From Deltaproteobacteria bacterium (GTDB lineage: Bacteria; Desulfobacterota; Syntrophorhabdia; Syntrophorhabdales; JANXAF01): a DNA stretch of 64,000 nt. A model generated the notes under the pieces. The model had not been told where the DNA came from and did no database searches. It saw nothing but the letters and a program-made list of their open reading frames with translations. This document shows positions 4,430 through 36,134 of this stretch, one piece after another. The DNA is taken from the NCBI GenBank assembly GCA_026417175.1, contig JAOADT010000001.1, forward strand, positions 38,918 to 102,917. The letters are read 5' to 3'. The number at the start of each line of letters is the position of its first letter. Positions within the stretch are counted from its first letter, which is position 1. The translations under genes were made by a program, and so were the position numbers.

Positions 4430-4981
4430 TTATCCTTTCTTTGAAAGTCTATAGACCGCATCAAGGACTTTATCCCAACCGTATCTATCTATTAGCGACT
4501 GAACTCCTGTATCCATTTCCTCAGGTGTAGCCTCTTCTTCGACTTCTTCTTCTCTTTCCTCGTATGTAATGGCGTCCACGAGACACCACTTGGCACACAT
4601 GGGTTTATCCAAAGGAGGGTCGTCCTCGCACATATCACACTTGAGCGGAAGTCCAGAGTCAGGTTCTTTAAAGATGTCCCTAGAAGGACAGGAAGCACCA
4701 CAAAAACTGCAAACACTTATGCCATCTCCATAATTGCTCTGAGGTCTTTCATCAAGGAAGTAGACCGGTCTTCCCGCGCACTCAGCACTAGTGTAGAAAC
4801 TCGATTTTACGGGCACGAACACATTCTTTAGCTCATTTCTGAAAACGTGTATCCTCGCTCTGGCCGGGTTGACGTTACTATATTTGGGATTGGCATGAAA
4901 GGCAGCACATGCGACTTCGCATGCCCTGCAACCCATGCATTTGTTGAGATCTATTTTTAATACCTTTACCTTCCTCTTCAT
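4430..4981 (-). CDS. 4Fe-4S dicluster protein (BamC-like small subunit of the AOR-family enzyme)
   Basis: 183 aa with CMGCRACEVAC, CSFCGASCP and CDMCEDD..CAKWC cysteine clusters. Paralogue of 32832..33371. Lies immediately downstream of the AOR gene. Confidence 0.75.
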   Translation of the reverse strand: MKRKVKVLKIDLNKCMGCRACEVACAAFHANPKYSNVNPARARIHVFRNELKNVFVPVKSSFYTSAECAGRPVYFLDERPQSNYGDGISVCSFCGASCPSRDIFKEPDSGLPLKCDMCEDDPPLDKPMCAKWCLVDAITYEEREEEVEEEATPEEMDTGVQSLIDRYGWDKVLDAVYRLSKKG

Positions 4982-12135: not shown

Positions 12136-12411
12136 TCAACCGAACCTGTATTGGACTCCAAACTCTCCACCCGGGTACCCCCAAGATATTGCTCCTCGTA
12201 CACATGCAATCATGCATGTACCACACTCTAAGCATCCCGCATACTCAACAGTCATTTCATTTGTCTCCTCTATCAGCTTGTACAGATTTCCTGGACACAC
12301 GTTAAGGCAAAACCTCATTTTGCATGTTTTGCATATGGTATTGTTTATTGTTATATGACTTACTTTGTCATTTTTGATTATATTCTTTGCAAGCTTTTCT
12401 TCGGTTTTCAT
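12136..12411 (-). CDS. FixX-type ferredoxin-like protein
   Basis: The ATG at 12411 overlaps the fixC stop (ATGA). C-terminus CKTCKMRFCLNVCP...CLECGTCMIAC...WGYP. The longer ORF-track start at 12471 lies inside fixC. Confidence 0.8.
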   Translation of the reverse strand: MKTEEKLAKNIIKNDKVSHITINNTICKTCKMRFCLNVCPGNLYKLIEETNEMTVEYAGCLECGTCMIACVRGAISWGYPGGEFGVQYRFG

Positions 12412-13694: not shown

Positions 13695-14674
13695 TAGACT
13701 TCTTCCTTAGCCTTTTTTAGTTCCTCTTTAAGGACTGGGAGAATCGCAAATATATCGTCCACTATTCCGTAATCTGCAATGTTGAATATAGGTGCGTTAG
13801 GGTCCGAGTTTATAGCAACTATCGTCTTAGATGTATCTATTCCCATCGTATGATGGATTGCTCCTGAAACACCGCAACCTATATACAAAACTGGAGAAAC
13901 GGTTTTTCCGCTCTTTCCTATTTGTTCCTCATATTCTCGCCAATTCGCATCAACAACAGAGCGTGAAGCACCAACTCTCCCTCCCATAATATCTGCTATC
14001 TCTTCTAATATCTTGAAGTTCTCAGGAGCTTTCATACCTCTTCCACCGCATATGATGAAGTCCGCTTCCTGCAAATCTACTTTTTTTTCCTCTTTTCTCT
14101 CCGCTCTCAAAAATCTTATTTTTTTGTCTTTCTTTGTTTCAATTTTTTCCCTTATCACTTCTCCGGATAAACTAGGTTCGCTTACGGAAAAACTGTTTGG
14201 TCTAAGTGTTGTAACCACTTTGTTTCCTTCCTTAACCTCTACGTAGGAAAGTACCCTGCCTCCGAACAATGGTTTTTTGAATAGAAGCCTTCCGTTTTCT
14301 AATTCAAATCCAGTCACATCTGCAAGAATAGCCCAGTCAAGCATTCCTGAAAGCTTAGGAAGTATAAATCTTCCATAACCCGCGTGGGACCCTATGACGA
14401 AGGAGGAACTTGTTTTCTCAACTAGCATATGAAGTATCTCAGCGTAATTATCTATCGTAAAATCCGTGAGATACTCTTCGTCTACTACGTGTACGTAATC
14501 AGCGTGACCTTTCACATACTCAGCTAGAATTTCTACTTGAAATCCTATAATAGCCACATGAAGCTTCGATGAAAAAAATTTTCTTAATCTTTTCCCCGCT
14601 TCAATAGCTTCATAAGAGACCTTTCTTACAGATCTGTCCTTTAATTCTATGTAGACCAATACATCCTTTGCCAT
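13694..14674 (-). CDS. etfA: Electron transfer flavoprotein alpha subunit (EtfA/FixB)
   Basis: 326 aa. C-terminal FAD-binding region GASRSVVDANW...QIGKSGKTVSPVLYIGCGVSGAIHH. Confidence 0.9.
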   Translation of the reverse strand: MAKDVLVYIELKDRSVRKVSYEAIEAGKRLRKFFSSKLHVAIIGFQVEILAEYVKGHADYVHVVDEEYLTDFTIDNYAEILHMLVEKTSSSFVIGSHAGYGRFILPKLSGMLDWAILADVTGFELENGRLLFKKPLFGGRVLSYVEVKEGNKVVTTLRPNSFSVSEPSLSGEVIREKIETKKDKKIRFLRAERKEEKKVDLQEADFIICGGRGMKAPENFKILEEIADIMGGRVGASRSVVDANWREYEEQIGKSGKTVSPVLYIGCGVSGAIHHTMGIDTSKTIVAINSDPNAPIFNIADYGIVDDIFAILPVLKEELKKAKEEV

Positions 14675-14688
14675 CTTTCCACCTCTCT

Positions 14689-15465
14689 TTATATGACCTT
14701 AGCTTCCTGTTTGAGAAGGGATATCAATTTTTTAACTTTCTCTTCTGGGCTTTGTCCCTCAATTATTTTAACGGCTGGCCTTTTTCCTGGAAACTCAAAC
14801 CGAACTATCTCAGTTTTTTGAGTTAAGGGAATAGATAAAAGAGAATAAGGGTCTACGAAAGCTATTTGAGCCCTCATAGCCTTCATAACGCCCGTAATTG
14901 CAGGAACTCTCGGTTCATTTATCCCCTTTCTAAGAGAGAAAAGGGCGGGGAGTTCCACTTCATAGCCGAAAAAACTACCATCTATCTCAGAATCAACAAC
15001 GACTTTATTCGTGTCCATGACTTCTATTTTTACAACCGAACCAACGTATGGAATCTTAAGATTTTCTGCTATGAGCACTCCTACCACACCATTTTCGTCA
15101 TCCATAGCTCTTTCACCGCAAAAAATCAAATTAAAACCTTCTTTTTCGGCGAAGCCAGATAATACCTTTGCAGTAAAGTAAGGATCCCAAATGTTGTATT
15201 TTTCCGTTTCAATAAGTACAGCTCTGTCTACTCCCATTGCGATTGATGTCCTAAGCACCTCCTGAGCTTTCCTAGATCCTAAACTTACAGCCACAACTTC
15301 ACAGTTCTTGACTTTTTCCTTTACTCTTATTGCTTCTTCTATTGCAAATTCGTCAAAAAAATTGAGGCTAAATCGTTCTTCAAAATCCAGAGATTTTTTA
15401 TCGTCCTGTATGTTAATCTTTGCTTCGGAATCTAGCACTTGTTTCACAAACACAAGGATCTTCAA
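14689..15465 (-). CDS. etfB: Electron transfer flavoprotein beta subunit (EtfB/FixA)
   Basis: MKILVFVKQV... Start is the second TTG (15465), 6 nt after AAGGAGG. The track start at 15471 is too close to the SD. Confidence 0.88.
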   Translation of the reverse strand: MKILVFVKQVLDSEAKINIQDDKKSLDFEERFSLNFFDEFAIEEAIRVKEKVKNCEVVAVSLGSRKAQEVLRTSIAMGVDRAVLIETEKYNIWDPYFTAKVLSGFAEKEGFNLIFCGERAMDDENGVVGVLIAENLKIPYVGSVVKIEVMDTNKVVVDSEIDGSFFGYEVELPALFSLRKGINEPRVPAITGVMKAMRAQIAFVDPYSLLSIPLTQKTEIVRFEFPGKRPAVKIIEGQSPEEKVKKLISLLKQEAKVI

Positions 15466-15481
15466 TTTCAACCTCCTTACC

Positions 15482-16630
15482 TTAAAGTTTTCCGATTATA
15501 CTCCTTCCGATAAAATCCTTCAACACCTCATGTGTACCGCCTCCGTAAAGGAGGAATCTCGCATCTCTGAAGTATCTTTGAGGATTATATTCGTAAGCAA
15601 AAGCGTTAGCTCCGTAAATCCTTGTTACCTCATCTACTACTTTTAAACATACCTCAGTCGCGAACATCTTCGCTTCAGCTGCTATTGTTCTTGCGTCCAT
15701 TCTGTTTTCAAGAAGCCACGCTCCGTAATATACCATAAGTTTTGCTGCGTTCATTAATGTATCCATCTCTGCGAACTTCTCCCTTATGAGCTGAAAGTTC
15801 CCGATAGGTTGACCAAAAGCTATTCTTTTGCGGGCGAATTCCAGACCTTCTTCATAAGCGGCTCTGGCCAACCCTAACGCCATTGCACCTGTCATAAGTC
15901 TCACTTCATCAAGTATCTCACCCACATACTGTACCCCTTTTCCAAGTTCCTCACCCAGAAAGTTTTCATCAGGTACCCATACATTGTCGAAAATGAGCTC
16001 ACCTGTCACTGTACCTCTACAGCCCAGTTTACGTATAATCTGTCCGCTCGAAAACCCTGGAGTACCTTTTTCAACCAAGAAGAAGTTTAATCCTTTGAGA
16101 CCCAATGATGGATCAACAGTTGCGAGCACTGTACAAAAATCACATATAGGTCCGTTTGTTATCCACATTTTTGTACCGTTTATTCTCCATCCATCGCCGT
16201 CTTTGACTGCCCTAGTTCTTGTTGAACCGAGGTCAGATCCTGATTGGTCTTCAGTAAAACAGATAGTTGCTATCTTCTCACCTCTCATTGCCGGATATAG
16301 ACATCTCTCTTTTATAGCATCATTCCCAAATCTATAGATAAAATAAGTTCCCATTAAAATGTTCATTATTACACTTTGGGCAAAACCGACAGAGCCTCTA
16401 GTAATCTCCTCATAGAATATCATACACATTACCTTGTCCGCATTCATGCCGCCTATCTCTTCAGGGTATCTTAGTCCCAAATACCCAAGCTTAGAAAACT
16501 CTCGCCATAGGTCCCAGGGAAATTCGTCTTTTTCATCTATATCTTTGGCCTTTGGTATTATCATTTTGTTAACAGTGTCTCTTATGGTTTTTCTAAAAAA
16601 TTCTTGCTCCTCTGTTAACTTGAAGTCCAT
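15482..16630 (-). CDS. Acyl-CoA dehydrogenase
   Basis: 382 aa. LTEEQ..., ...GSDLGS..., WITNG and a C-terminal ..LYGGGTHEV.. typical of the ACAD family. Confidence 0.9.
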   Translation of the reverse strand: MDFKLTEEQEFFRKTIRDTVNKMIIPKAKDIDEKDEFPWDLWREFSKLGYLGLRYPEEIGGMNADKVMCMIFYEEITRGSVGFAQSVIMNILMGTYFIYRFGNDAIKERCLYPAMRGEKIATICFTEDQSGSDLGSTRTRAVKDGDGWRINGTKMWITNGPICDFCTVLATVDPSLGLKGLNFFLVEKGTPGFSSGQIIRKLGCRGTVTGELIFDNVWVPDENFLGEELGKGVQYVGEILDEVRLMTGAMALGLARAAYEEGLEFARKRIAFGQPIGNFQLIREKFAEMDTLMNAAKLMVYYGAWLLENRMDARTIAAEAKMFATEVCLKVVDEVTRIYGANAFAYEYNPQRYFRDARFLLYGGGTHEVLKDFIGRSIIGKL

Positions 16631-23078: not shown

Positions 23079-25100
23079 ATGATAACATCTATTATGGTCC
23101 AGGATTTTCTCGAGTCTATTCTTGTAGTATTTGGAATATCTGCTTCCATAATTTACTTACTCGGAAAAATAAAACTTCCCTCCATAGTTGGTTTCCTCTT
23201 AGCCGGAACCATTATAGGACCTTATGGGATGGGGCTTATTCAAAGCTTAAAAGACGTTGAGATGATCGCAGAAATTGGAATTATCCTTCTTATGTTCACA
23301 ATAGGTGTTGAATTCTCACTGACTAAACTTTACGGGCTGAAGAAAGAAGTGTTCTTGTTTGGTCCCTTACAAATACTGCTTACAACAACTATCTCTGCCG
23401 TTTTGGCACACATCATTTTAGATATCCATTTGAGAAACGCCACTTTCTATGGGTTTGTCGTGAGTCTAAGTAGCACTGCTATTGTCATGAAACTTTTAGC
23501 TGAGAAAGGCGAGCTCAATACAAGACACGGGAAGATATGTGTGGGCATTTTATTATTTCAAGACATATGCGTAATTCCTTTGATGTTGTTGACTAGGCTT
23601 ATTTCAACTCATAACGAACAACCTTTAGGAGATTATCTGGTGGTTCTTCTTAAGTCTTTTTTGATACTCTTTGTAGTTTTTCTATTCTCTAGGACGGCCA
23701 TTCCCTATTTTCTTCATGAAATTGTCAAAACAAAAATTAGGGAGCTTTTTATCCTCGTAACAATCTTTGTTTGTCTTGGTACAGCCTATGTAACCTCCAA
23801 GTTGGGTCTTTCTTTAGCCCTTGGAGCCTTTCTTGCAGGAGTTATAATATCAGAATCGGAATACTCATCTCAGGCGCTCTCCGATATTTTGCCTTTTAAA
23901 GAAATATTTTCGGGCATATTCTTCATTTCTATTGGCATGTTACTGGATCTTGAGTTTTTAAAACTAAGGATCACAGATGAATTCGTGCTTATCTTGACAG
24001 TTATTTTTATTAAGATTCTGTCAGTTGTTTTTGCAGTTTACCCCTTTGTAAAATCCTTAAAAATTTCTCTTAAGACAGGTTTTTCTCTCGCTCAGATAGG
24101 AGAATTTTCATTCATCCTTTCTTTTGCCGGAAGGGCGCTAGGTCTTATAGATTCACAAGAATACCAGAGCTTTATTGCAATCACCGTTGCTTCCATGTTT
24201 ATAACACCTGCAATATTGAGATACTCTCCTAAAATAGTTGATGAACTGGTAAAATTGAAGCTTTTCCACCATTTTGAAAAGGTGACCAGAATAAAGGACA
24301 GTGAAATCTCTGTGAGAAAAATGAATCACGTCATAATAATCGGATTCGGGCTAAATGGTAGAAATCTTGCCAGGGTACTTAAAGATTCCGGAATAAGTTA
24401 TGTAATCCTGGATCTAAATCCGGACACTGTTAGAAAATCAAAAAGAAAAGGGGAACCTATATACTATGGAGATGGAACAAGTTCAGAAATCCTTCGCAAG
24501 CTTGGAATCCTTTGGGCAAAGATACTTGTCGTAGCCATCTCTGATCCCACATCCACAAAAAGGATTGTGGAAATGGCTAGGACCGAAAATCCCAGAATTC
24601 ACATAATTGTTAGAACCCGTTACGTCTCAGATATAGACGAGCTTTTGAATGTTGGTGCGAACGAGGTAATCCCTGAAGAATTCGAAACATCTCTTGAGAT
24701 ATTTGGACGGGTTTTACATCATTTTGGAGTTCCGAGAAACAAGATACTGGAAACAATAGACCGTATAAGACAAGAGGGATACAAAACTCTACTTTTAGAT
24801 ACACCCCTAAAAACAAGGGTCGGCTTGGAGTGCACAATGGTGGAAGGTCTTGAAATGGATAGCTACATTGTGGAAAAGGATTCCTGGTTAAAGGGAAAAT
24901 CGATAAAGGCCATAAATCTCAGGGCAAAAACAGGAGCAACAATTATCGCCGTAAAAAGGGGTGAAGAAAACATTCTAAATCCAGACCCAGACCTTGTTTT
25001 GAATGAGGGTGACATAGTCGTTTATTTAGGTACAAAAGAACAAGTTACACTAACCTTCCATTTTTTAAGTGGAAGGCCCTCCGGACAGAGCCTGAGTTAA
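23079..25100 (+). CDS. CPA2-family monovalent cation:proton antiporter (Kef-type) with C-terminal RCK (TrkA-N / TrkA-C) domains
   Basis: 673 aa. About 12 hydrophobic segments, then VIIIGFGLNGRNLARVL (a GxGxxG NAD fold) and a TrkA-C-like C-terminus. Confidence 0.85.
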   Translation: MITSIMVQDFLESILVVFGISASIIYLLGKIKLPSIVGFLLAGTIIGPYGMGLIQSLKDVEMIAEIGIILLMFTIGVEFSLTKLYGLKKEVFLFGPLQILLTTTISAVLAHIILDIHLRNATFYGFVVSLSSTAIVMKLLAEKGELNTRHGKICVGILLFQDICVIPLMLLTRLISTHNEQPLGDYLVVLLKSFLILFVVFLFSRTAIPYFLHEIVKTKIRELFILVTIFVCLGTAYVTSKLGLSLALGAFLAGVIISESEYSSQALSDILPFKEIFSGIFFISIGMLLDLEFLKLRITDEFVLILTVIFIKILSVVFAVYPFVKSLKISLKTGFSLAQIGEFSFILSFAGRALGLIDSQEYQSFIAITVASMFITPAILRYSPKIVDELVKLKLFHHFEKVTRIKDSEISVRKMNHVIIIGFGLNGRNLARVLKDSGISYVILDLNPDTVRKSKRKGEPIYYGDGTSSEILRKLGILWAKILVVAISDPTSTKRIVEMARTENPRIHIIVRTRYVSDIDELLNVGANEVIPEEFETSLEIFGRVLHHFGVPRNKILETIDRIRQEGYKTLLLDTPLKTRVGLECTMVEGLEMDSYIVEKDSWLKGKSIKAINLRAKTGATIIAVKRGEENILNPDPDLVLNEGDIVVYLGTKEQVTLTFHFLSGRPSGQSLS

Positions 25101-25661
25101 GAGGTATAGCGCCTGGGCGTAAGAAGTCGGACAGAGCGGGAAGCATTCTTTACACTTATCACATTCTTTTAAAGCGATCTCAGGGATAAAACTTATCTCT
25201 CTTTTCACCCCGCTTTGAACAAACGATATGGCATATTTTTTCTTGACTTCAGAGCAGTATCTAACACATAGACCACACAGGATGCAGAATATAGGTTCCT
25301 TCCCAAATTTTTCTTCTTTTGCACCATATTCTTCTTTTAGTTTGATAAGTTCGGGAGATCCTGGCGCACGTGCAAGAAGAAGCTCCACTATAATCCGCCT
25401 TATTTTTTCAACCTCTGGACTCCTTGTTTTCACAACAAGCCCTTCTTCAACTGGGTAAAGACAAGAGACAACATAATTTTTTCTTCCCCTACTTTCAATT
25501 TCTACTGTGCATAGTCTGCAACCGCCATAGGGCTCAAGATCTTTATGGTAGCAAAGTGTGGGAATATCTATACCTTCCCTTAAAGCTACCTGAAGGATGG
25601 TCATACCTTTTTCTGCCTTACATTCCTTCCCGTCTATGGTTATATTCACTACATCTGACAT
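25065..25661 (-). CDS. [2Fe-2S]/[4Fe-4S] protein resembling the NuoG N-terminus (BamI-like)
   Basis: Start MSDVVNITIDGKE at 25661, 2 nt after the NuoF-like stop. Motifs CYHKDLEPYGGCRLCTVEI, CILCGLCVRYC and CDKCKECFPLCP. Confidence 0.8.
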   Translation of the reverse strand: MSDVVNITIDGKECKAEKGMTILQVALREGIDIPTLCYHKDLEPYGGCRLCTVEIESRGRKNYVVSCLYPVEEGLVVKTRSPEVEKIRRIIVELLLARAPGSPELIKLKEEYGAKEEKFGKEPIFCILCGLCVRYCSEVKKKYAISFVQSGVKREISFIPEIALKECDKCKECFPLCPTSYAQALYLLTQALSGGPST

Positions 25662-25663
25662 CT

Positions 25664-27313
25664 TTACTTCTCCTTGACTAATCGTGATTCGAACTCTTTC
25701 CAAAAGTATTTCAAAGCACTCTCCAAGGGAGATGAAGCTGTTCTTCCCAATGCGCACAGAGAAGCCTCTTTTTGAACATCGCAGATTTCTCTTATCGTTT
25801 CCACATCCTGATACGTGCCGGAACCGTCCTTTATCTTTTTGAGGAGTTTTCTTATCTGTCTTATACCCTCCCTACAAGGGACACACTTACCACATGATTC
25901 TGTTGATAGAAAATCCAGAAAATAAGAGACTAGTTCAAGCATATCATCTTTTTCGTCAAGAACAAGTAACCCACCAGCGCCAATAGGTGCTCCTAATTTG
26001 GCACATGCGTCAAAATCTAAAGGGGTATCTATTAGTTCCTTCGGAATTGATCCACCCATGGCAGACCCAAAATGAACAGCCTTTAAATCATTTCCGTTTC
26101 CAGTTCCTCCACCTAAGTCGAATACAATCTCCCTCAGACTCATCCCAAAAGGTACCTCAATCACTCCGGCATTTTTTATTCTTCCCGAAAGCGATATAAG
26201 CTTTGTCCCCTTGCTCCTCTCGGTGCCTATTTTCGAGTACCATTCAGCCCCATTTTCTATAATGAGGGGTACATTGGCCCATGTTTCCACGTTATTTAAA
26301 TTACTAGGTTTTTCGTAGATCCCGCTTACCGATGTCCTTATGTATTTGGGTCTAGGCTCAGGAATCTTTCCTTCGATCGACCTCATTAAAGCACTAGATT
26401 CACCGCTAACGAATATGCCTATATCCAGGTGAATCTCCACATCGAAGTCGAACCCGCTTCCCAATATGTTCTTTCCAATAAAACCATATTCTCTCGCTTT
26501 GCTAATAGCTGTTTCTATATTTTTTAATAAGTCTGGTGCATCATGCCTGGTATAGATAAATCCTTGTCTGGCCCCTATGGCATAAGCCCCAATTATTAGA
26601 CCTTCGAGAACTATGTGGGGATTGCCCCCGAGGATTGCTCTATCCATGTATGCACCAGGTTCACCCTCATGTCCATTAACGATCACATATTTGATGTCAC
26701 TTTTTGCGTTTCTTGTAGTCTCCCACTTCTGACCAGCAGGAAAGCCGCCACCTCCTCTCCCTCTTAAATTGGACTTCTTGATCTCCTCTAAAACATCAGT
26801 TGGAGACATTTGGGTTAGCGCCTTTACTAAAGCAGAATAACCTCCAAGTGCTATGTAATCGTCAATACTTTGGGGATCAATCTTTGTGTTATATCCGAGG
26901 ATAAGCCTAGTCTGTCTATTATAGAACGGTATATCCTTAAGGTGAGGGGTCTTCCCTACTTTTTCATCTTCGTAGACAAGTCTGTCAACAATTCTATTTC
27001 TCAATATGGTTTCCTCAATTATTTCTGTTGCATCTTTTTCTTTCACTTTAAGGTAACATATCTCTTCAGGATAAATGATTATACTTGGCCCCCAGGAACA
27101 CATCCCATGACATCCCGTGAGTTTGACCTTGATTTTTTCTTCAAGACCCTTTTTACCAAGCTCATCCTTTAGTGCGCTTGCAATCTTTTTTCCATCTTTA
27201 CTTGAACATCCTCCCCCGCCACAAACTGATATTATCCGTTCCGAAGAAGCCATTATAGACTGTACCCTATTTTTCAATTTTAAAAAGTCTTCATATGAGC
27301 TTATTCTCTGCAT
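25664..27313 (-). CDS. NuoF-like NAD(P)H-binding FMN/Fe-S flavoprotein with an N-terminal thioredoxin-like [2Fe-2S] domain (BamH-like)
   Basis: 549 aa. GRGGGGFPAGQKW (FMN site) and ESCGKCVPCREG ([4Fe-4S]). N-terminal CGGGGCSS...CHGMCSWGP. Confidence 0.9.
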   Translation of the reverse strand: MQRISSYEDFLKLKNRVQSIMASSERIISVCGGGGCSSKDGKKIASALKDELGKKGLEEKIKVKLTGCHGMCSWGPSIIIYPEEICYLKVKEKDATEIIEETILRNRIVDRLVYEDEKVGKTPHLKDIPFYNRQTRLILGYNTKIDPQSIDDYIALGGYSALVKALTQMSPTDVLEEIKKSNLRGRGGGGFPAGQKWETTRNAKSDIKYVIVNGHEGEPGAYMDRAILGGNPHIVLEGLIIGAYAIGARQGFIYTRHDAPDLLKNIETAISKAREYGFIGKNILGSGFDFDVEIHLDIGIFVSGESSALMRSIEGKIPEPRPKYIRTSVSGIYEKPSNLNNVETWANVPLIIENGAEWYSKIGTERSKGTKLISLSGRIKNAGVIEVPFGMSLREIVFDLGGGTGNGNDLKAVHFGSAMGGSIPKELIDTPLDFDACAKLGAPIGAGGLLVLDEKDDMLELVSYFLDFLSTESCGKCVPCREGIRQIRKLLKKIKDGSGTYQDVETIREICDVQKEASLCALGRTASSPLESALKYFWKEFESRLVKEK

Positions 27314-27324
27314 AGCCTTTCCTT

Positions 27325-27771
27325 TTATCCAATTTTCTTAAGTATTCCTTCTATATCATCAGGTTTTACATTTCCATATACTTCACCATCTATCTCTATT
27401 TCCGGCCCAGAAGCACAGCGTCCGGAACAGGAGGATAATTCTAAGCTAAACTTCATGTCAGGAGTTGAATCACCTACTTTAATCCCAAGGAGGTTTTCAA
27501 GTTTTTCTACAACTTCCCTTCCACCCCTTATATAGCAGGACACCCCCGAACAAACTTTTATCACATGCTCAGCTTTGGGTTTCAGGCTAAACGTTTTGTA
27601 AAAAGTTGCTATTCGCATCACTTCATTCACTGGAACAGACAATCTCTTACTGAGATAAAAAATAGATTCTCTAGGTATATACCCCTTTTCGTGTTGAACG
27701 TCCATTAACATCTCGATGAGAAAATTTCTTCTTCTGGAATACTTCTCTATGATGCTTTCCAAATAATCCAT
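27325..27771 (-). CDS. NuoE-like thioredoxin-fold [2Fe-2S] protein (BamG-like)
   Basis: 148 aa. CSGVSCYIRGG ... CSGRCASGPEIEIDG. Confidence 0.88.
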   Translation of the reverse strand: MDYLESIIEKYSRRRNFLIEMLMDVQHEKGYIPRESIFYLSKRLSVPVNEVMRIATFYKTFSLKPKAEHVIKVCSGVSCYIRGGREVVEKLENLLGIKVGDSTPDMKFSLELSSCSGRCASGPEIEIDGEVYGNVKPDDIEGILKKIG

Positions 27772-27774
27772 AGA

Positions 27775-28527
27775 TCAACTCCCTACTTGTGTCTCTAGTT
27801 TCACAAATCCTTCTAATTCAAGATTTTTTAATGCTTTAAGAATCTCCTTTTCGTCAATGCCTACCCTTTTTGACAATTCTCCGTATTCTGAAATTCCTTT
27901 TCTTTTAGCATCAACTATAAGCCCCATAGTTATTTTATCGAAAATCATTTTTTCGATAATACTATTTATCTCAGGGCTTTCAAAATATTCGTCAATTTTT
28001 CCGATATTATTCCCTTGGAACCTGAGTCTCCCTCTTTCTACTAGTTTGATGTACGGAAGGAGATTCAGTACCACACCTAGCCTCTCATTCATAACTTCAT
28101 CTGGTAAACCTTCTTTCTTTCCTATGGGTCCAAGCTCTTTTATCTGCCGTATGAAATCTTGCATCACTTCTGCAAATCTAACACCTTCTGCAGATGAGAG
28201 AAATTCCATTCTGATTCTCTTTTTATCAATACCAATAAATCCGAAAATCTTTTTTAAAAGAATAATCATTCCATATGCGTGAATATTACCTTCCGTTGTG
28301 TAATGGCATTCTCCTGGAAGACATCCCACTACTATTATTCCATCCACTTTTTCTTTAAATGAATTAATCACGAAGGCAGGATCAACTCGTCCCGTACACA
28401 TAACACGAATCAGTCTTATATCTGGGGGGTATTGCAGTCTGGAAACTCCAGCCAGGTCAGCCGCTCCGTACCCTCACCAAAAACAAACAAAACCGATAAT
28501 CTTTGGCATATACTCAAAGGTATTCAT
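27775..28527 (-). CDS. MvhD-like (methyl-viologen-reducing hydrogenase delta subunit family) selenoprotein (BamF-like), with a C-terminal extension
   Basis: The track ORF starts at 28401 (MCTGRVDP), but the frame stays open upstream through a single TGA (28474..28476) to the ATG at 28527, which has AGGAGG 4 nt upstream. The result is [48 protein letters not shown], matching the MvhD N-terminal consensus C-x-W-C-x-Y-x-G-A-D-L-A-G with Sec at the second Cys. Confidence 0.85.
28439..28451 (-). promoter_or_regulatory. SECIS-like stem-loop downstream of UGA 28474..28476
   Basis: On the minus strand, CTGGA-GTT-TCCAG is 22 nt after the UGA. It is flanked by a possible outer helix GGGTA (28473..28469) / TACCC (28431..28427). 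Confidence 0.4.
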
Positions 28528-28535
28528 AGATCCTC

Positions 28536-31500
28536 CTAATCTTTTTCTCTTAAAGCTTCAATACCTTCTCTTATCTGAGTGTAAAGCTGGGTATCTGTAA
28601 AGTGCTTAAGCTGTATCGCATTTGTCGGGCATTTAGCGTTGCAAAGTCCATCTCCTTTACAGAGCACTGGATTAACTCTAGCTTTTTTTCCTCTTTCAGT
28701 TTCGTAAAACTCGATAGCGTCATATTTACAGACCGAAATACATGCGCGACAAGATACGCACTTTTCTTCATCGACTTCACATATGGCTCCCGAAGCCAAA
28801 ACGTAGTCTTTAGAAAGAAGTGTTAAAGCTCTACCTGCCGCTCCGTAAGCTTGATTTATCGCTTCATTTACATGTTTTGGATAGTGTGCCATTCCGCACA
28901 GAAACACTCCTTCTGCAGAAAAGTCTACAGGACGTAATTTCACATGGGCTTCTTGGAAGAAACCGTCAGGGTTGATCGGAACTTTGAAGAACTTTGAAAT
29001 CTGGGTATTATTTCTATGAGGAATCACAGCTGAGGCCAATACTAACATGTCAGCTTCGATTTCTAGTTCCTTCTTTATAACTCTGTCTACCACTTTTACG
29101 ATAAAACTTTCCTTTCCCTTGGACCCTTTAAATTCTACAGTAGGAGGAATGTCTAGGTCGTAACGGATGAAACGTACTTCTTTGTCCTGGGCTTTAAAAT
29201 AATAATCTTCGTTGAAACCATAGGTCCTCATGTCTCTGAAAAGTATGTATATATCCTTCTCAGGGTATTTCTCTTTTAGCTTCAGGGCATTTTTTACTGA
29301 ATGGTTGCAACATATTCTACTGCAGTAATTTCTTTCCTCGTTTCTTGATCCAACGCATTGGATCATTACAATGGTCCCTACATTTTTGATCCTTTCATCT
29401 TCCCTAGCTAGAAGTTCTTCGAATTCAAAATTTGTTACAACAAAATTGTTCTTTCCATACATATATTCTTTCGGTTTATATTCTTCTGCTCCTACCGCTA
29501 CTATTGCAACTCCGTGCTTAATTGTACTAATTCCGTCCCTTGTTCTTATCCTTGTGGAAAAGTTCCCCACGTATCCTGTGACATCGAGTATCTCCGAATT
29601 TGTCCTCACATGGATGTTAGGATGCGAAAGCACCTGGCCTATAAGTTCGTCTGTAAAAGAGCGAACATCAAACCCATCAAGAGTGAAATAAAGTTTCTTG
29701 GCATTTCCTCCAAGAGTCTCCTCTTTTTCCACAAGGTATACCTCGTAACCTTGTCTTGCTATACTTAAGGCAGAGACCATACCGGCTATTCCACCGCCAA
29801 CAACGAGTACTCTTTTATCTATGGGAAGTCTCAATTCCTCAAGAGGGGCTAGATACACAGCTCTAGCTACAGCCATTCTGACTAAATCCTTTGCTTTCTT
29901 CGTTGCACGCTCCTTTTCCCTTGGATGCACCCAAGAGCAATGTTCCCTTATATTTGCCATTTCAAAGTAATACTGGTTAATTCCGCCTTCTCTTAGGGTA
30001 TCTCTGAAAAGCGGTTCATGGGTCCTTGGAGTGCAGGCCGCAACAACAACTCTATTCAATCTTTTCTCCTTTATCGCATCTGCTATCTGTTTTGCCGCAT
30101 CTGTAGAGCATGCAAATATTGACTCCTGTGCATGTACCACGTATTTAAGTCTTGAAGCAAATCTTACCACCTCTGGTACGTTTACAACCCTTCCTATGTT
30201 TGCTCCGCAATGACATACAAATACTCCCACACGAGGTTCTTCTTGAGTTGTATCCCTTTCTTCTGGGTAAAGTCTCTCCTTAGTCAGTAGATTTCTACGT
30301 GTGCCGAGTATTTCCCCGCACTGACTTGCTGCACCGCTTGCAGATACAACAGATTCAGGTATATCCATGGGACCTTGAAACGCACCACTCACAAATATTC
30401 CGGGTCTTGAAGTTTTTATAGGATTGGAAGGAGAAAATTTTGAAAACCCGTACCCATTTAATTCGATGCCAAATTTCTGAGCAAGTTCTGTATATCCACT
30501 TGGTGGCTTGAGCCCAACAGAAAGTACCACCATATCAAAATCCTCTTCTTTTACCCCGTCCTCTGTAGCATATCTTATCCTAAGATTCTTGGTGTCTGGA
30601 ATCTCACCCTCCAACGAGACATAACTTCTTATGAATCTTACCCCTTTTAAATTCGATGCTCTTTGGTAAAACCTTTCAAAGTCTTTTCCAAATGACCTTA
30701 TATCGTTGTGGAATACCACACATTCGCAGTCAGGTTCATGCTCCTTTGTAAGAATCACTTGCTTCTGTGTATAGGCGCAACACACGGAGGAACAATAGGG
30801 AGAGCCAGGTTCTTTTAATGTTCTAGATCCTACACACTGAATCCATGCCACTTTCTTTGGATGCCTTTTGTCAGACTTTCTTAGGATCTCTCCTTCGTAT
30901 GGACCGGTAGAGCAGAGTAATCTTTCGTAGTCAAGGCTTGTCACGACGTTATCGTAAACCCCGTAGCCAAATTCAGTTGTAAGTGAAGGATCAAACACTT
31001 CAAAACCAGGAGCTAGAATAATGGCTCCAACTTCTATCTCTTCCCTTTTCGGTTTTTGAAAAAGATCTATAGCCTTGTTCTTGCAAACACCCGCGCATAT
31101 GGAGCACTTCTCTCCACTTAGATACAGACAGTTATCCCTGTTTATGTAAGCAACAAGTGGAACGGCTTGAGAAAAATACACATGAATAGCCTTATTCTTT
31201 GAAAGCTTCTGATTGTATTCGTCCTCAACTTTTATTGGGCAGAACTCGGTACACATACCGCATCCGGTACATCTTTCCTCATCAATGTATCGCGGTTTTC
31301 TTATAAGGCTCACTCTGAACTCGGGAAATTCGCCATCAACCTTCTCTACTTCCGTATATGTGAGAATCTTAATGTTTGGGTGTCTACTACACTCGACCAG
31401 TTTCGGTGACTCTATACACATGGAACAGTCATTTGTGGGAAAGGTCTTATCAAGCTGTGCCATGTGACCACCTATGCCTGGAGCACGGTCAACAAGATAA

Positions 31501-31646
31501 ACTTTGAAACCAGAAGAGGCAAGATCTAAAGACGCTTGTATACCACTTATTCCTCCACCGACGACCATTATGTCGCCAACTTCTTTTTTTTCGAAATCCC
31601 TTATAAGTTGCAAAATTTTTTCTTTAGTGATTACCTCTCCGTTCAC
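28536..31646 (-). CDS. Double HdrA-like FAD/Fe-S oxidoreductase (BamE-like), all-Cys version
   Basis: 1036 aa. Two dinucleotide folds ([32 protein letters not shown]), several ferredoxin-type Cys clusters and a C-terminal 2x[4Fe-4S] motif (CVSCRACISVC, CKGDGLCNAKCP). Confidence 0.9.
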   Translation of the reverse strand: MNGEVITKEKILQLIRDFEKKEVGDIMVVGGGISGIQASLDLASSGFKVYLVDRAPGIGGHMAQLDKTFPTNDCSMCIESPKLVECSRHPNIKILTYTEVEKVDGEFPEFRVSLIRKPRYIDEERCTGCGMCTEFCPIKVEDEYNQKLSKNKAIHVYFSQAVPLVAYINRDNCLYLSGEKCSICAGVCKNKAIDLFQKPKREEIEVGAIILAPGFEVFDPSLTTEFGYGVYDNVVTSLDYERLLCSTGPYEGEILRKSDKRHPKKVAWIQCVGSRTLKEPGSPYCSSVCCAYTQKQVILTKEHEPDCECVVFHNDIRSFGKDFERFYQRASNLKGVRFIRSYVSLEGEIPDTKNLRIRYATEDGVKEEDFDMVVLSVGLKPPSGYTELAQKFGIELNGYGFSKFSPSNPIKTSRPGIFVSGAFQGPMDIPESVVSASGAASQCGEILGTRRNLLTKERLYPEERDTTQEEPRVGVFVCHCGANIGRVVNVPEVVRFASRLKYVVHAQESIFACSTDAAKQIADAIKEKRLNRVVVAACTPRTHEPLFRDTLREGGINQYYFEMANIREHCSWVHPREKERATKKAKDLVRMAVARAVYLAPLEELRLPIDKRVLVVGGGIAGMVSALSIARQGYEVYLVEKEETLGGNAKKLYFTLDGFDVRSFTDELIGQVLSHPNIHVRTNSEILDVTGYVGNFSTRIRTRDGISTIKHGVAIVAVGAEEYKPKEYMYGKNNFVVTNFEFEELLAREDERIKNVGTIVMIQCVGSRNEERNYCSRICCNHSVKNALKLKEKYPEKDIYILFRDMRTYGFNEDYYFKAQDKEVRFIRYDLDIPPTVEFKGSKGKESFIVKVVDRVIKKELEIEADMLVLASAVIPHRNNTQISKFFKVPINPDGFFQEAHVKLRPVDFSAEGVFLCGMAHYPKHVNEAINQAYGAAGRALTLLSKDYVLASGAICEVDEEKCVSCRACISVCKYDAIEFYETERGKKARVNPVLCKGDGLCNAKCPTNAIQLKHFTDTQLYTQIREGIEALREKD

Positions 31647-31667: not shown

Positions 31668-32819
31668 TTAAGTTACTTCGTTTATTAACTCTGCCAAGTC
31701 CTTTATACGAAGCTTATCTTCGTAACCCATGATTAGCTTACTGTCTTCCAGCGCTGTTATGCAGTAAGGACAACTAGTCACAAGTTCCATAGCACCCAAT
31801 TTCACCGCGTCTTCAACTCTTATGTTAGAAAACCTTTCGTGTTTCTCGGTTTCGGCCCAAACTCTACCCCCTCCCATTCCACAACACAAGCTTGCGAGTC
31901 TATTCTCTGGAAGCTCCAGCATATTGACCCCATTTATTGACCTGAGTACCTCTCTAGGTTTTTCAAATATGTTACTGTGTCTTCCAAGGTAACAGGGATC
32001 GTGATAAGCGATATTTGCCACATAGTCTCTGCTGAGTTTTAATCTCTTGGACTCTATGAGTTCTTTCAAATACTCGGATATGTGTACAACCTCAAAATTT
32101 GCACCGAAATTAGGATATTCATTTTTGAAAGTGTAATAGCAATGTGGTGATGAGACGACTATTTTTCTTACCCCGAAGTCAATAAACTTTTTTAGATTTT
32201 CTTTGGCAAGCTTCTTAAAAACTTCTTCATTTCCCGTTTTCCTTATGCTTTCCCCACAACAACTTTCAGCCTCACCGAGAATCCCAAAATTCACCTGTGC
32301 CTTTTGTAACAGCTGTACAGTTGCTCTCGCAACGTTTCTGAGTCTCGGATCGTAGCACATATAACAGCATGTGAAATAGAGAACCTCCATCTTCTCCTCA
32401 AAAATCTTAACGTTTAGTCCTTCTGCCCACTTCGCTCTCTCCTTTGGGTCCTCATTAAATGGATTACCTTTAGAGATGAGGTAAGTAGCTATCTGTCTGT
32501 AAGTTTTTGTAGAGCTTGGAAATACATTGTAAGCAGTTGCCATTCTTCTTATGGCCACTATGTCATCAATCTGTCTCACATCCCTCGGACACAAAAGGAC
32601 GCATCTCCCACACGTGGTACATCTCCAAATGTCCTCTTTTTCAATCTCTGTGAGACCAAATACCGCATCTCTTATCAATCTTCTCATACTAAATACCCTA
32701 ACGCGATTCCAAGGACATACCGCATCACATTTACCGCACTGATAACAGTACTTTACCCTTTCCCCACCGTACTGTTTTATCTCATCAATTACCTCTTTAA
32801 AAGGCGCCACAATTTCCAT
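31668..32819 (-). CDS. HdrD-like Fe-S / CCG-domain protein (BamD-like)
   Basis: 383 aa. CYQCGKCDAVCP and CTTCGRCVLLCP, then the CCG motifs SCCGESIRK and LCCGMGGG. Confidence 0.85.
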   Translation of the reverse strand: MEIVAPFKEVIDEIKQYGGERVKYCYQCGKCDAVCPWNRVRVFSMRRLIRDAVFGLTEIEKEDIWRCTTCGRCVLLCPRDVRQIDDIVAIRRMATAYNVFPSSTKTYRQIATYLISKGNPFNEDPKERAKWAEGLNVKIFEEKMEVLYFTCCYMCYDPRLRNVARATVQLLQKAQVNFGILGEAESCCGESIRKTGNEEVFKKLAKENLKKFIDFGVRKIVVSSPHCYYTFKNEYPNFGANFEVVHISEYLKELIESKRLKLSRDYVANIAYHDPCYLGRHSNIFEKPREVLRSINGVNMLELPENRLASLCCGMGGGRVWAETEKHERFSNIRVEDAVKLGAMELVTSCPYCITALEDSKLIMGYEDKLRIKDLAELINEVT

Positions 32820-32831
32820 GTCTAACCCTCA

Positions 32832-33371
32832 TTACAACTCTTTCGCTACTTTTGCAATTGTATCCACGACTTTCTCAAGACCATGTCTTTTTAACAGAGT
32901 AGCTACAGATACTTGGAGTTCGTCGGTCGTATGTGGTTCCACCTCTACTTCCCTCTCGATGTATGTAAGGGCTCCCGAATGACATTCCTTTACACACATC
33001 GGAATGTCCGAATCTTCTCCTTCACATGCATCGCATTTAAATGGAAGACCAGACTCCGGATCTTTGAACGCATCCCTTGAGGGACAGGCTGCTGGACAGA
33101 ATTCGCATGTACCAAATTCTCGACCCCGGATAGTAAAAGAGTTTCTGGCGTTGCATTCAGCTTCAGTGTACTGACCTGCTCTGATCGCCACGTAGTTGTC
33201 CGCAAACTCATCGATTATCACCCGAATCCTCGATTTTGCAGGGTTCACACTTGAATATTTGGGGTTCGCGTGGACCTGTGAACATACAATCTCGCAGCAT
33301 CTACAACCATTGCACTTGTCCATATCAAATCTTATTTCCTTTATCTTCTTTTTTACTTTTTGTCCTTCCAT
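32832..33371 (-). CDS. 4Fe-4S dicluster protein (BamC-like)
   Basis: 179 aa. CNGCRCCEIVC, CEFCPAACP and CDACEGE..CVKEC. Confidence 0.8.
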   Translation of the reverse strand: MEGQKVKKKIKEIRFDMDKCNGCRCCEIVCSQVHANPKYSSVNPAKSRIRVIIDEFADNYVAIRAGQYTEAECNARNSFTIRGREFGTCEFCPAACPSRDAFKDPESGLPFKCDACEGEDSDIPMCVKECHSGALTYIEREVEVEPHTTDELQVSVATLLKRHGLEKVVDTIAKVAKEL

Positions 33372-33388: not shown

Positions 33389-35353
33389 CTATATTCCCCA
33401 AGGATACTTGTCTTTGTATTTTTCGTAGACATTTGGGACCTCGTCATTACCAGTCAAAATTCCCCTTTTCAAGAAATCTTCTGCCACGAAATCCAGATCC
33501 AGTTTTTTTAAAGTCTCAACCGTGGGAATGCCTTGCTTTGTCCATCCTTGATACTCGTAATAGCAGTCAAGAAGGATTTGTTCGTACTCGTGGTTTCTCA
33601 CTGCCCAATGGTCTTCCGGCGGTTTCTCATCCTCTCTCCTCATACCTCTTCGCACATTCAGTGCCCGAACGAGATTTCTATTTCTCTTATAAACTGTCCA
33701 AAGTTTTTCTTCATCGAACTCCACTCCTGTGATCACAGTTATAAACTCTGGGATGTTATGTATGTGGTATACGGTTCTTCCTCCGAATTGGCCCCTAAAT
33801 GAGGAGACAAAACCGCACAACCCGGTTGCATCATCAATGTAATGCATAGCCTCATTCCACTCTGTAATTGCACATGCCATTTCGATTGTAACCATTTCTC
33901 TTTTTTCCCACTCCAAGAACCATTTCTTAAATCTCTCATCCTTTGCAGCGATCCATCCCCTTACGAATTCTTCCCTCTCCTCTCTGGTAGGAAGGGGATC
34001 CTGAGGAAAAGATCCCTCTATCTGGGTTATATTCATCTTCTCCCCTGTGGCTATCATTAAGAAGTACGGAGGATTAAGTTTCCCTAGTTTTATCGGAACC
34101 TGTTCAAACTTCTTTGTTGTGTTATGATCGAAAGCCTCGGCTCCTTTTCCTATCTTACGGGCAGCCCAGTATACGCCATCTGCAAGAATATCCCCAATAC
34201 CTTCTCTTTTCACAATCTTGTCCAAGAAGTAAAAAAATCGACCTTTAATATCGTTTGGCATGCCGGGCAGATCGTTGTCTGTGAGTATCCCTGCTTCGTA
34301 AAGTTCCAGCGCAAACGCTATAACTTGAGGTGTTGTGTAAGAATCGAGGCCTAGATTTTGGGCTACACCTAAGATATCGTAACTGAAATCAAGTTCCTGA
34401 AAGGCTGCCATATGGTAAGTATCTTTGCCAAAACATTTGTAAGAAAATCTCTTTCTTCCCGGCCAAGATATAACATTATGACATCTCTTTGGACAATTAA
34501 AACAACCTGTTTGTCTATCTAAGTGATCGTATTTTATACGTGTAAATCTTTCTTCAATTTCAGGTGTCCAGTAACCTTTCCTTCTCACTCTTGCATTTCC
34601 CCAAGCAAAATTGTCATGATGAAAGCTATCGTCTTCGTCTACCGCCATCCAGTCACCAACGTGTGGGTTTTCAGCGATTTCTTTCCTGAGTCTATTTCCT
34701 AGTTCAAATGCTTTTTGAGGGTTTGCTACGTACAAATCCTTAGTTCCCTTTATGGCTATTGCCTTTACCCTCTTGTCACCCATTACAGCACCTGCCCCAC
34801 GCGCTGCACTCGCATGGCTGTGATCTATAGAAGCATAAAATACTCGGTTCTCCCCAGCAGGTCCGATTGCTGCAATTTGGAATCTATGCCCGAGTTCTTT
34901 TTTTAGTACTTCCTGTGTGTCATATGTGCCAAGACCTTTTAGATGACTCGCATCTCTTATCTCAACCTTATCGTCGCAGATATAGATGTACACTAACTTG
35001 TCAGCCTTTCCTTTTATTATGATCTTATCATAACCTGCGAATTTCATCTCCGGAGCGAAATAACTTCCCATCATAGTGTGTGCGTGGAGATTAGTTTGCG
35101 GGGAGAATGTATTTACTATCGTTCTATTGGCTCCTGGGATAGGAGTCCCACAGAAAAGACCTGCGCTGAATATAAGTAAATTATCTGGGGAAAAGGGTTC
35201 CACCTCTGGAGGAACTCTGTCCCATAGAATTCTATCCGCAGATCCCTGACCCCCAACGTAAAGCTCGAGCCATCTAGGATCAGATTCCACCTTTTCTATA
35301 TTTCCTGTCGAGAGATCAATCTCTAAAAAATATCCAGTTTCTCCGTATCTCAT
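33389..35353 (-). CDS. AOR-family tungsto/molybdopterin enzyme (BamB-like)
   Basis: 654 aa. MRYGETGYFLEIDLSTGNIEK..., GENRV, GAVMGDK. The AAGGAG RBS lies in the 13-nt gap after the IclR gene. Confidence 0.88.
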   Translation of the reverse strand: MRYGETGYFLEIDLSTGNIEKVESDPRWLELYVGGQGSADRILWDRVPPEVEPFSPDNLLIFSAGLFCGTPIPGANRTIVNTFSPQTNLHAHTMMGSYFAPEMKFAGYDKIIIKGKADKLVYIYICDDKVEIRDASHLKGLGTYDTQEVLKKELGHRFQIAAIGPAGENRVFYASIDHSHASAARGAGAVMGDKRVKAIAIKGTKDLYVANPQKAFELGNRLRKEIAENPHVGDWMAVDEDDSFHHDNFAWGNARVRRKGYWTPEIEERFTRIKYDHLDRQTGCFNCPKRCHNVISWPGRKRFSYKCFGKDTYHMAAFQELDFSYDILGVAQNLGLDSYTTPQVIAFALELYEAGILTDNDLPGMPNDIKGRFFYFLDKIVKREGIGDILADGVYWAARKIGKGAEAFDHNTTKKFEQVPIKLGKLNPPYFLMIATGEKMNITQIEGSFPQDPLPTREEREEFVRGWIAAKDERFKKWFLEWEKREMVTIEMACAITEWNEAMHYIDDATGLCGFVSSFRGQFGGRTVYHIHNIPEFITVITGVEFDEEKLWTVYKRNRNLVRALNVRRGMRREDEKPPEDHWAVRNHEYEQILLDCYYEYQGWTKQGIPTVETLKKLDLDFVAEDFLKRGILTGNDEVPNVYEKYKDKYPWGI

Positions 35354-35366
35354 ACTTTCACTCCTT

Positions 35367-36134
35367 TTAAACTTTTTGCGTATTTACTGCATTTATTTCT
35401 TTTGCAACTGATAAAAGCATTTTAACAATCTCATCTATCTTCTCATTTGGTAGCTGGCTTTTCAATCCGACAACCCATATAGCCGACTGAACATTTTTAC
35501 TTCCGGTCTCTATAGGTACCGAAAGTCCTATCATACCTTCGATGTATTCTTCAAAGTCGTAAGCGATGCCTTCTTTTTTTATCCGGAGTAGTTCGCTTTT
35601 GAACTTGTCCTTATCGATTATGGTTTTCTCCGTGTACTTTCTCAATTCTGTTTTTTCTAAGAGTTCCTCTATCTTATCTTCCGACAACTGGGAAAGCATA
35701 GCTTTTATCCCTGCACCTGCAAAAGGTGGCATAGTCAGCCCTATATCTGAACTGAGCTTGATACCATGATCCGCCTCAACCTTATCCACCAGTATGGCCT
35801 GGGCCCCTGACCGGACACCTAAAAATACCGAAAGACCACTCTCATTTTTTATGAACTCTAGGTATGGATGGGCAAGCTGAATCAGGTTTGACTTTCTGCT
35901 TGCCATATTAGCTAGCGTGTAAAAAAGTGTTCCCAGTGAGAATCTTCCAGAAGGTAAACAATTAAGTACGTGAAGTGCAGCTAATGTGTAAATTATGTTA
36001 TATACTGTGCTTTTATTAATACCGAGTTTCTTTGAAATATCAGATATACCTAAAGGTTCCTCACTTTTAGCTAGCGCTTCAAGGATCTTGAAACATTTTT
36101 CAATTGCTGGAACTTTTTTGAATTTGTTCTCCAT
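35367..36134 (-). CDS. IclR-family transcriptional regulator
   Basis: 255 aa. N-terminal wHTH (IEKCFKILEALAKSEEPLGISDISKKLGINKSTVYNIIYTL) and a C-terminal IclR effector domain. Confidence 0.88.
   Translation of the reverse strand: MENKFKKVPAIEKCFKILEALAKSEEPLGISDISKKLGINKSTVYNIIYTLAALHVLNCLPSGRFSLGTLFYTLANMASRKSNLIQLAHPYLEFIKNESGLSVFLGVRSGAQAILVDKVEADHGIKLSSDIGLTMPPFAGAGIKAMLSQLSEDKIEELLEKTELRKYTEKTIIDKDKFKSELLRIKKEGIAYDFEEYIEGMIGLSVPIETGSKNVQSAIWVVGLKSQLPNEKIDEIVKMLLSVAKEINAVNTQKV

Follow-up and report, generated by a model that had tools for sequence, protein, structure and literature searches.

Does a bacterium that encodes the same electron-transfer module twice, once with selenocysteine (Sec) and once with cysteine (Cys) at homologous positions, switch between the two copies according to selenium supply? 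This question is raised by a stretch of 64,000 nucleotides from a Deltaproteobacteria bacterium (GenBank assembly GCA_026417175.1, contig JAOADT010000001.1, positions 38,918 to 102,917; hereafter the window), in which two minus-strand gene clusters repeat the same gene theme, that of the class II benzoyl-CoA-reductase-type complexes (Bam). Here cluster 1 designates the one encoding the HdrA-like protein BamE-2 and cluster 2 the one encoding its paralogue BamE-1 (Table 1). Our results make it likely that these are two anciently diverged clusters and that the Sec/Cys split between them is an inherited lineage trait and not the mark of a selenium-controlled isoenzyme pair.

Sec and Cys codons at three positions

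The sites were read by translating TGA as U, followed by codon checks. As the sequence-only reading had claimed, BamE-1 has Cys exactly where BamE-2 has UGA: translation, codons and a BLASTP alignment agree at both sites. In the alignment, which spans 798 residues at 65% identity, U74 faces C77 and U477 faces C480, and there is no gap around either site. The MvhD-like gene of cluster 2, encoding BamF-1, does carry a UGA of its own, UGA18, and all three UGAs within the window stand at family-conserved Cys positions. The picture of paralogous, mixed Bam-like clusters holds in that Sec and Cys differ at the two BamE positions while cluster 2 keeps its BamF Sec, but it was incomplete, as BamF-2 of cluster 1, encoded just beyond the window, has a Sec too. 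BamE and BamF together contain three Sec in cluster 1 and one in cluster 2.

BamE-1 matches HdrA (PDB 5ODC, chain A) in three segments, together with two Rossmann/FAD modules, and displays the CxxC pair and an internal HdrA-N-terminal-type domain. Its C74-C77 pair corresponds to Cys59-Cys62 of Geobacter metallireducens BamE and, by alignment to C194..C197 of 5ODC, to C194-x-x-C/U197 of HdrA. Since C77 aligns to C197 of 5ODC and U74 to C77, U74 of BamE-2 is the equivalent of Sec197 in Methanococcus maripaludis HdrA (PMC13518236). Similarly, the counterpart of BamF-1 U18 in G. metallireducens is BamF Sec19, which adjoins the [2Fe-2S] cluster.

Several lines of sequence evidence establish UGA74, UGA477 and UGA18 as real selenocysteine codons. 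The genome encodes tRNA-Sec, SelA, SelB and SelD, the last one (contig C88) with an in-frame UGA of its own, and each of the three UGAs is followed by a hairpin, proposed as selenocysteine insertion sequence (SECIS), that has no counterpart in the Cys copy. As mononucleotide-shuffle z-scores were uninformative, hairpins were judged instead by within-gene window ranks, comparison of paralogues and orthologues, and RNAalifold. For 82 distinct Sec-type BamE genes, RNAalifold gives as consensus the site-1 hairpin, which starts 18 nt after UGA74 and is missing in 28 Cys-type genes including BamE-1; the mean minimum free energy at this site is -12.6 kcal/mol in Sec-type versus -7.2 kcal/mol in Cys-type genes. 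At site 2 the hairpin starts 15 nt after UGA477, and its 60-nt window (-18.2 kcal/mol) is equalled or beaten by just 1.2% of the in-frame windows of BamE-2. The orthologue of BamE-2 in genome G004, from another genus (79% identical), has the same two UGAs and the same site-2 hairpin, whereas the orthologue in the sister genome G003 (85% identical) has TGT at site 2 and encodes the same peptide GRVVDVP via synonymous codons, with a weaker and different stem. For BamF, 71 distinct Sec-type genes have the CUGGA-GUU-UCCAG stem as their consensus.

Under the standard code BamE-2 would have two in-frame stops, and one could therefore take it for a decaying pseudogene whose UGAs are plain stops. We give this hardly any credence. 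The 1040-codon frame is interrupted by these two UGAs only and both stand at conserved Cys with hairpins directly 3' of them. In all three segments, including those past each UGA, the nonsynonymous rate dN is 0.09-0.15 and the synonymous rate dS is saturated, which indicates strong purifying selection on BamE-2 that extends downstream of both UGAs. The machinery, the hairpins, the identical UGAs in the orthologue of another genus and this selection together exclude decay as well as sequencing error; the latter, considered as a source of the UGAs, is ruled out by the G004 orthologue, the hairpins and the dN and dS values. A further HdrA-like locus of the same genome (G000:C77:71682-80302) contains one in-frame TGA, which together with that of SelD suggests a broader selenoproteome in this organism.

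Distribution of the states among BamE genes

We pooled 175 distinct BamE genes from three surveys: 80 loci retrieved with BamE-1 as query, 39 loci of the window's own class, and 80 loci retrieved with G. metallireducens BamB as query, these among at least 584 relatives. G. metallireducens itself was not among the matches listed by the BamB-seeded scan, and six Geobacteraceae loci stand as its proxies. The commonest state, found in 114 of the 175 genes, is Sec at BamE site 1, Cys at site 2 and Sec in the adjacent BamF. All three positions are Cys in 27 genes, both BamE sites are Cys beside a Sec-type BamF in 15, and all three are Sec in two (BamE-2 and its G004 orthologue); for 17 genes BamF was not seen on the locus. 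Thus 116 of the 175 have Sec at BamE site 1, and a Cys-type BamF was found beside none of these 116. The states are nested: Sec in BamF, then CxxU in BamE, then CxU in BamE. They are also phylogenetically stable, with just 3-4 changes of the site-1 state on trees of 117-173 sequences; because these are few independent events, the zero among 116 is to be read as a pattern and not as a statistic.

The phylogenetic placement separates the two clusters. Large trees were made with FastTree, and none of the trees is rooted. BamE-1 falls in one clade with its orthologues from G004 and G054, all of them Cys-type BamE associated with Sec-type BamF and with BamGH. Its grouping with Geobacteraceae BamE has a support of 92 in the large FastTree tree and, in the careful tree, of 95/98 with Geotalea. 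BamE-2 forms a trio with its G003 and G004 orthologues (support 100/100) inside the Sec-type majority. Each cluster has its own orthologue in G004; G003 carries the cluster-1 type only and has no second BamE. Judged by their sequences, the clusters are deep, anciently diverged paralogues, with identities of 56% for BamB, 42% for BamC, 61% for BamD, 63% for BamE and 48% for BamF.

The arrangement of cluster 2 echoes that of a studied enzyme of this type, the Bam[(BC)2DEFGHI]2 complex of G. metallireducens (cryo-electron microscopy preprint 10.64898/2026.04.10.717634; BamBC crystal structure 4Z3W). The gene order B-C-D-E-F-G-H-I is the same, and there is likewise Cys-x-x-Cys in BamE and a Sec in BamF adjoining the first cluster Cys; the differences are that BamB-1 is the more diverged paralogue, with indels, and that the present genome lacks an above-cut-off BamA. 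All six Geobacteraceae loci with a BamE show the order BCDEFGHI; their BamE has CSMC and VVCYCG, their BamF CTWU. In agreement with this, a selenoproteome table of 2006 lists FrhD/MvhD, but not HdrA, for G. metallireducens. In the survey of the three positions in relatives, which the sequence-only reading had envisaged, the mixed arrangement that it pointed out turns out to be the ordinary Geobacter type, present in all six of these loci and in the 15 genes counted above. Given these loci and the G. metallireducens structure, Cys-type BamE with Sec-type BamF is the canonical, studied arrangement.

Cluster 1, for its part, resembles the Sec-type clusters of sulfate reducers and syntrophs, that is the commonest state of our census, with which it shares CxxU in BamE and BamF and the conserved hairpins; unlike them, BamE-2 adds a second Sec at CxU. 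HdrA and MvhD have long been known as selenoprotein families with Sec/Cys conversions, and HdrA/FrhD selenoproteins were described in Syntrophus and Syntrophobacter (PMC1794560). For Desulfococcus multivorans, the annotation already includes a BamE with Sec (PMC5109826).

Same-class relatives (L122-L140, e.g. L127:6944-13912) present a further type of locus, with all-Cys BamE-BamF(-GHI) modules (CSMC, YVCHCG, ICNWCCYGGAD) that have no adjacent BamBCD. Their neighbours are unrelated (proteases, ABC transporters) and the same genomes carry full Sec-type clusters. These modules, absent from the genome studied here, could be selenium-independent modules or partners of another enzyme, and would be better candidates for a selenium-independent module than cluster 2.

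A second selenocysteine in BamE

Among the 175 BamE genes, the CxU motif is limited to BamE-2 and its orthologue in one sister genus. To look beyond BamE, species-representative genomes were scanned at the DNA level with the degenerate motif G-[VIM]-[FY]-V-C-x-U-G-x-N-I, for which about 0.05 chance matches are expected by a rough estimate. At least 119 stretches matched, 80 of which were fetched. Archaea, mostly Asgard, account for about 70 of these 80, and on translation the stretches prove to lie in an HdrA N-terminal domain; 32 have CxxU (mostly CSIU) some 180 residues downstream, and in six the third or fourth invariant Cys is U as well. With the narrower BamE form FVCxUGANIG, the scan gave one match only, due to chance, and nothing real elsewhere.

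The six Asgard HdrA genes with UGA both at CxU and at the third or fourth invariant Cys are L277, L292, L297 and L317 (LS[LM]UTEGG) and L259 and L276 (A[AS]UTPK); in such proteins several presumed ligands of one [4Fe-4S] cluster would be selenocysteine. The fetched stretches also include nine bacterial HdrA-like genes, six of which are closely related Desulfobacterota genes with long open frames (L242, L265, L269, L283, L307, L314). All six contain a single Sec at CxU with a GC-rich hairpin 3' of it, on the peptide GGVV(D/N)VP, in parallel with the BamE-2 hairpin on GRVVDVP. In one of these genes, viewed over its full length, the N-terminus is extended by a Cys-rich part which by eye resembles ferredoxin/NuoG.

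Multi-Sec HdrA have been described in Lokiarchaeota, with up to four Sec at five positions (Mariotti 2016, PMC4989117), of which CxU may be one. A review of 2026 still gives HdrA one CxxU Sec. That the second BamE Sec is without precedent is ruled out by the 119 or more matching stretches, mostly Asgard HdrA among those fetched, and by the multi-Sec HdrA of 2016. From these comparisons, the CxU Sec is new for BamE and confined to the small family of BamE-2, at a position that recurs in the wider HdrA family.

In archaea, SECIS elements lie in the 3' untranslated region and can serve many UGAs. BamE-2 differs from archaeal HdrA in that each of its UGAs needs its own in-frame hairpin, and in that the fused HdrA dimer which BamE represents works for a tungsten ring reductase and not for a heterodisulfide reductase. 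The CxU position is common to BamE-2 and the mostly Asgard HdrA stretches. Of the Cys residues in the HdrA N-terminal-type domain, just four are invariant over five solved HdrA sequences: both of CxC, one some 30 residues further on, and that of AAC(S/T)P. By this conservation site 2 is very probably a cluster ligand, and U477 probably a ligand of cluster E3. As for the history of site 2, the tree does not separate a gain followed by reversion from a single gain in the clade of the window's genome and G004 (90/92 for the alternative; approximately unbiased test, p = 0.125).

Two Bam lineages in one genome

Gene identities in both clusters come from Pfam and solved-structure searches (Table 1). 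Cluster 2 (IclR-BamB1C1D1E1F1GHI) holds the complete B-C-D-E-F-G-H-I gene set in one operon. In cluster 1 (BamB2C2D2-FdhD-E2-F2) the Bam set is only partly complete: reading the genome contig beyond the window, we found no BamGHI after BamF-2 or near the cluster, and BamF-2 itself consists of a FlpD domain followed by a C-terminal two-[4Fe-4S] ferredoxin domain. After 4Z3W chain A, the next-best structure match is aldehyde ferredoxin oxidoreductase (AOR), at about 220 bits. A Cys aligned to C322 of G. metallireducens BamB, which we take to be the tungsten ligand, is present in both BamB-1 and BamB-2.

Table 1. Features of the two Bam-like clusters and their Sec/Cys sites (window positions unless stated otherwise)
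Feature	Position	Strand	Remarks
IclR-type regulator	35367-36134	-	upstream end of cluster 2; also present in the orthologous cluster of G004
BamB-1	33389-35353	-	cluster 2; AOR-family tungsten-enzyme homologue; 776 bits to G. metallireducens BamB (PDB 4Z3W)
BamC-1	32832-33371	-	cluster 2; ferredoxin-like
BamD-1	31668-32819	-	cluster 2; HdrD-like (CCG domains)
BamE-1	28536-31646	-	cluster 2; fused double HdrA-like, 1036 aa, all-Cys, zero in-frame stops
BamE-1 site 1, C74-S-M-C77	31416-31427	-	C77 codon TGT 31416-31418
BamE-1 site 2, V-C478-H-C480-G	30207-30215	-	C480 codon TGC 30207-30209; HdrA-N-terminal-type [4Fe-4S] domain
BamF-1	27775-28527	-	cluster 2; MvhD/FlpD-like, 250 aa, U18
BamF-1 site, FVC15-F-W-U18-GYGAAD	28474-28476	-	TGA
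BamF-1 stem-loop, proposed SECIS	28434-28464	-	GCGG..CUGGA-GUU-UCCAG.CUGC
BamG	27325-27771	-	cluster 2; NuoE-like
BamH	25664-27313	-	cluster 2; NuoF-like
BamI	25065-25757	-	cluster 2; 2Fe-2S/4Fe-4S
BamB-2	4994-6961	-	cluster 1; 1007 bits to 4Z3W
BamC-2	4430-4981	-	cluster 1
BamD-2	3275-4426	-	cluster 1
FdhD	2469-3278	-	cluster 1, between BamD-2 and BamE-2
BamE-2	1-2447	-	cluster 1; first 815 of 1040 codons in the window; runs 622 bases past the window edge, to contig C11:38242
BamE-2 site 1, C71-S-I-U74	2226-2228	-	TGA; canonical HdrA CxxU site
Site-1 hairpin, proposed SECIS	2193-2210	-	CUGGUCG-AGGU-CGGCCGG
BamE-2 site 2, V-C475-Y-U477-G (VCYUGANIG)	1017-1019	-	TGA; second Cys of the CxC motif
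Site-2 hairpin, proposed SECIS	984-1004	-	GGGCGCGUC-GUG-GACGUGCCU
BamF-2	contig C11:37366-38211, just beyond the window		cluster 1, next after BamE-2; MvhD-like, Sec (FLCHWUGYGAAD)

The insertion of FdhD recurs in many related clusters (e.g. L142, L143, L145, L146, L148, L149) and suggests a role of this protein in maturation of the BamB tungsten-pterin cofactor. Between both Bam clusters, at 12408-16630 on the minus strand, lie genes for an acyl-CoA dehydrogenase, the beta and alpha subunits of electron-transferring flavoprotein (ETF) and a FixC/ETF-QO-like flavoprotein. As its high-potential electron acceptor, the G. metallireducens enzyme uses ETF (preprint 10.64898/2026.04.10.717634) and, by analogy, these genes may form a partner module of the Bam complexes here. 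At 27769-27777 the BamF-1 stop is TGA (27775-27777) and the BamG start follows one codon on in the same frame (TGA TCT ATG), which we read as an ordinary stop then restart.

Under the explanation that we favour, two enzymes that are probably functionally distinct, with different BamB and different electron-input modules, would each have inherited the Sec/Cys state of its lineage. The electron module of cluster 2 is of the Geobacter type, with Cys-x-x-Cys in BamE and Sec only in BamF, whereas cluster 1 belongs to the commoner lineage in which Sec is the second residue of the BamE CxxC pair and BamF is a selenoprotein too; in the small family of cluster 1 an extra Sec would have been gained at the second Cys of CxC, in the HdrA-N-terminal-type [4Fe-4S] domain. 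All UGAs would be decoded co-translationally via the hairpins directly 3' of them, with the genome's own SelA, SelB, SelD and tRNA-Sec. Published HdrA and BamE structures suggest for the CxxC/U pair a relay function, as disulfide or selenenylsulfide, that links the bifurcating FAD to cluster E3, and structural data would likewise place BamF Sec18 beside the [2Fe-2S] cluster. In G. metallireducens, one conformational state shows BamE Cys59-Cys62 as a disulfide at a distance of 3.4 A to E3, and BamF Sec19 was modelled beside [2Fe-2S] in the cryo-electron microscopy structure (preprint 10.64898/2026.04.10.717634), while in M. maripaludis HdrA, Cys and Sec197 flank a density read by the authors as a possible selenenylsulfide bridge (PMC13518236).

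The sequence-only reading had likened the two clusters to the selenium-switched Vhu/Vhc and Fru/Frc pairs of Methanococcus, and such a pair here would make cluster 1, with three Sec, when selenium is plentiful and cluster 2, with one, when it is scarce, cutting demand. The existence of those pairs, the saving of two Sec per BamEF unit and a regulator adjacent to cluster 2 only lend this some appeal, and like Vhu/Vhc and Fru/Frc the Bam clusters are paralogous sets with Sec versus Cys at homologous positions. The analogy fails, however, because neither cluster is selenium-free: in Methanococcus the Cys set is wholly so and is induced under selenium limitation, while cluster 2 still encodes a selenoprotein subunit, BamF-1, whose U18 comes with a conserved hairpin, and BamF-2 has Sec as well. 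Both complexes needing selenium, they are unlikely to make a selenium-controlled pair. SelD is itself a selenoprotein, and the cluster-2 regulator is IclR-type, typical of aromatic catabolism. Moreover, the Bam paralogues are much more diverged than the Methanococcus sets and differ in composition: BamB is 56% identical, the input is BamGHI in one case and a ferredoxin-domain BamF in the other, and FdhD occurs in cluster 1 only. Finally, the sister genome G003 has the Sec-rich type alone, and cluster 2 shares its Cys/Sec combination, as a conserved lineage trait, with Geobacteraceae. A selenium-responsive pair seems improbable to us on these grounds.

About equally improbable is that both clusters make up one joint system, in which cluster 1 borrows BamGHI from cluster 2 and Sec-type and Cys-type BamE compete for one input module. 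The absence of BamGHI near cluster 1 would fit such a loan, and BamE-F(-GHI) modules stand apart from BamBCD in relatives too. On the other hand, the interface of G. metallireducens BamF with BamI is a winged-helix motif (preprint 10.64898/2026.04.10.717634), and this, taken together with the C-terminal two-[4Fe-4S] ferredoxin domain of BamF-2, suggests by analogy a different and direct electron input for cluster 1. G003 also has the cluster-1 type and no second BamE, though it may hold BamGHI elsewhere.

The interpretation as two inherited lineages has its own weak points. BamB-2, not BamB-1, is nearer to characterised BamB (bit scores in Table 1), and for this reason cluster 2 cannot simply count as the orthologue of the Geobacter operon. 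The best match to the ring hydrolase BamA/Oah in this genome (96% complete, 2.15 Mb, two Bam clusters) scores 133.8 bits against TIGR03200, versus a cut-off of 464 bits, which makes benzoyl-CoA a presumed physiological substrate of either cluster; for the same reason 'benzoyl-CoA reductase' is used here as a family assignment and not as a demonstrated function. The large FastTree trees, being unrooted, give no direction to the Sec/Cys changes, and U477 is a putative cluster ligand by sequence conservation. Regulation that spares selenium, by going from three Sec in each protomer to one, is also conceivable, though improbable.

A bolder proposal is that one functional relay is made up of the BamF Sec beside the [2Fe-2S] cluster F1, the CxxC/U pair of BamE and, as ligand of the mobile cluster E3, CxC/U, and that the nested order of adoption reflects it. 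We regard this as rather unlikely. If true, cluster 1 would be a naturally occurring version with selenium at all three positions, its selenenylsulfide meeting a [4Fe-4S] cluster that has a selenium ligand. As the same cell also encodes the minimal-selenium cluster 2, the two would offer a natural comparison for how, in HdrA-type bifurcation, electrons pass among F1, E3 and the bifurcating FAD.

Sec in HdrA, MvhD and BamE, multi-Sec HdrA in Asgard archaea and the mixed state of the Geobacter type were already known. To these, our analysis makes two modest additions, the nested distribution of Sec over three positions and the presence of three-Sec and one-Sec BamEF pairs in one genome. It also corrects the reading of such a pair of clusters as a selenium back-up, attractive but unsupported. 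That the BamF Sec is kept wherever BamE has Sec bears on the part played by the Cys/Sec pair and by the MvhD/BamF Sec in flavin-based electron bifurcation, raised as an open question in the 2026 structure papers on class II benzoyl-CoA reductase and on Hdr-Vhu-Fwd. A genome encoding both a one-Sec and a three-Sec module is a reasonable source of proteins for their side-by-side comparison.

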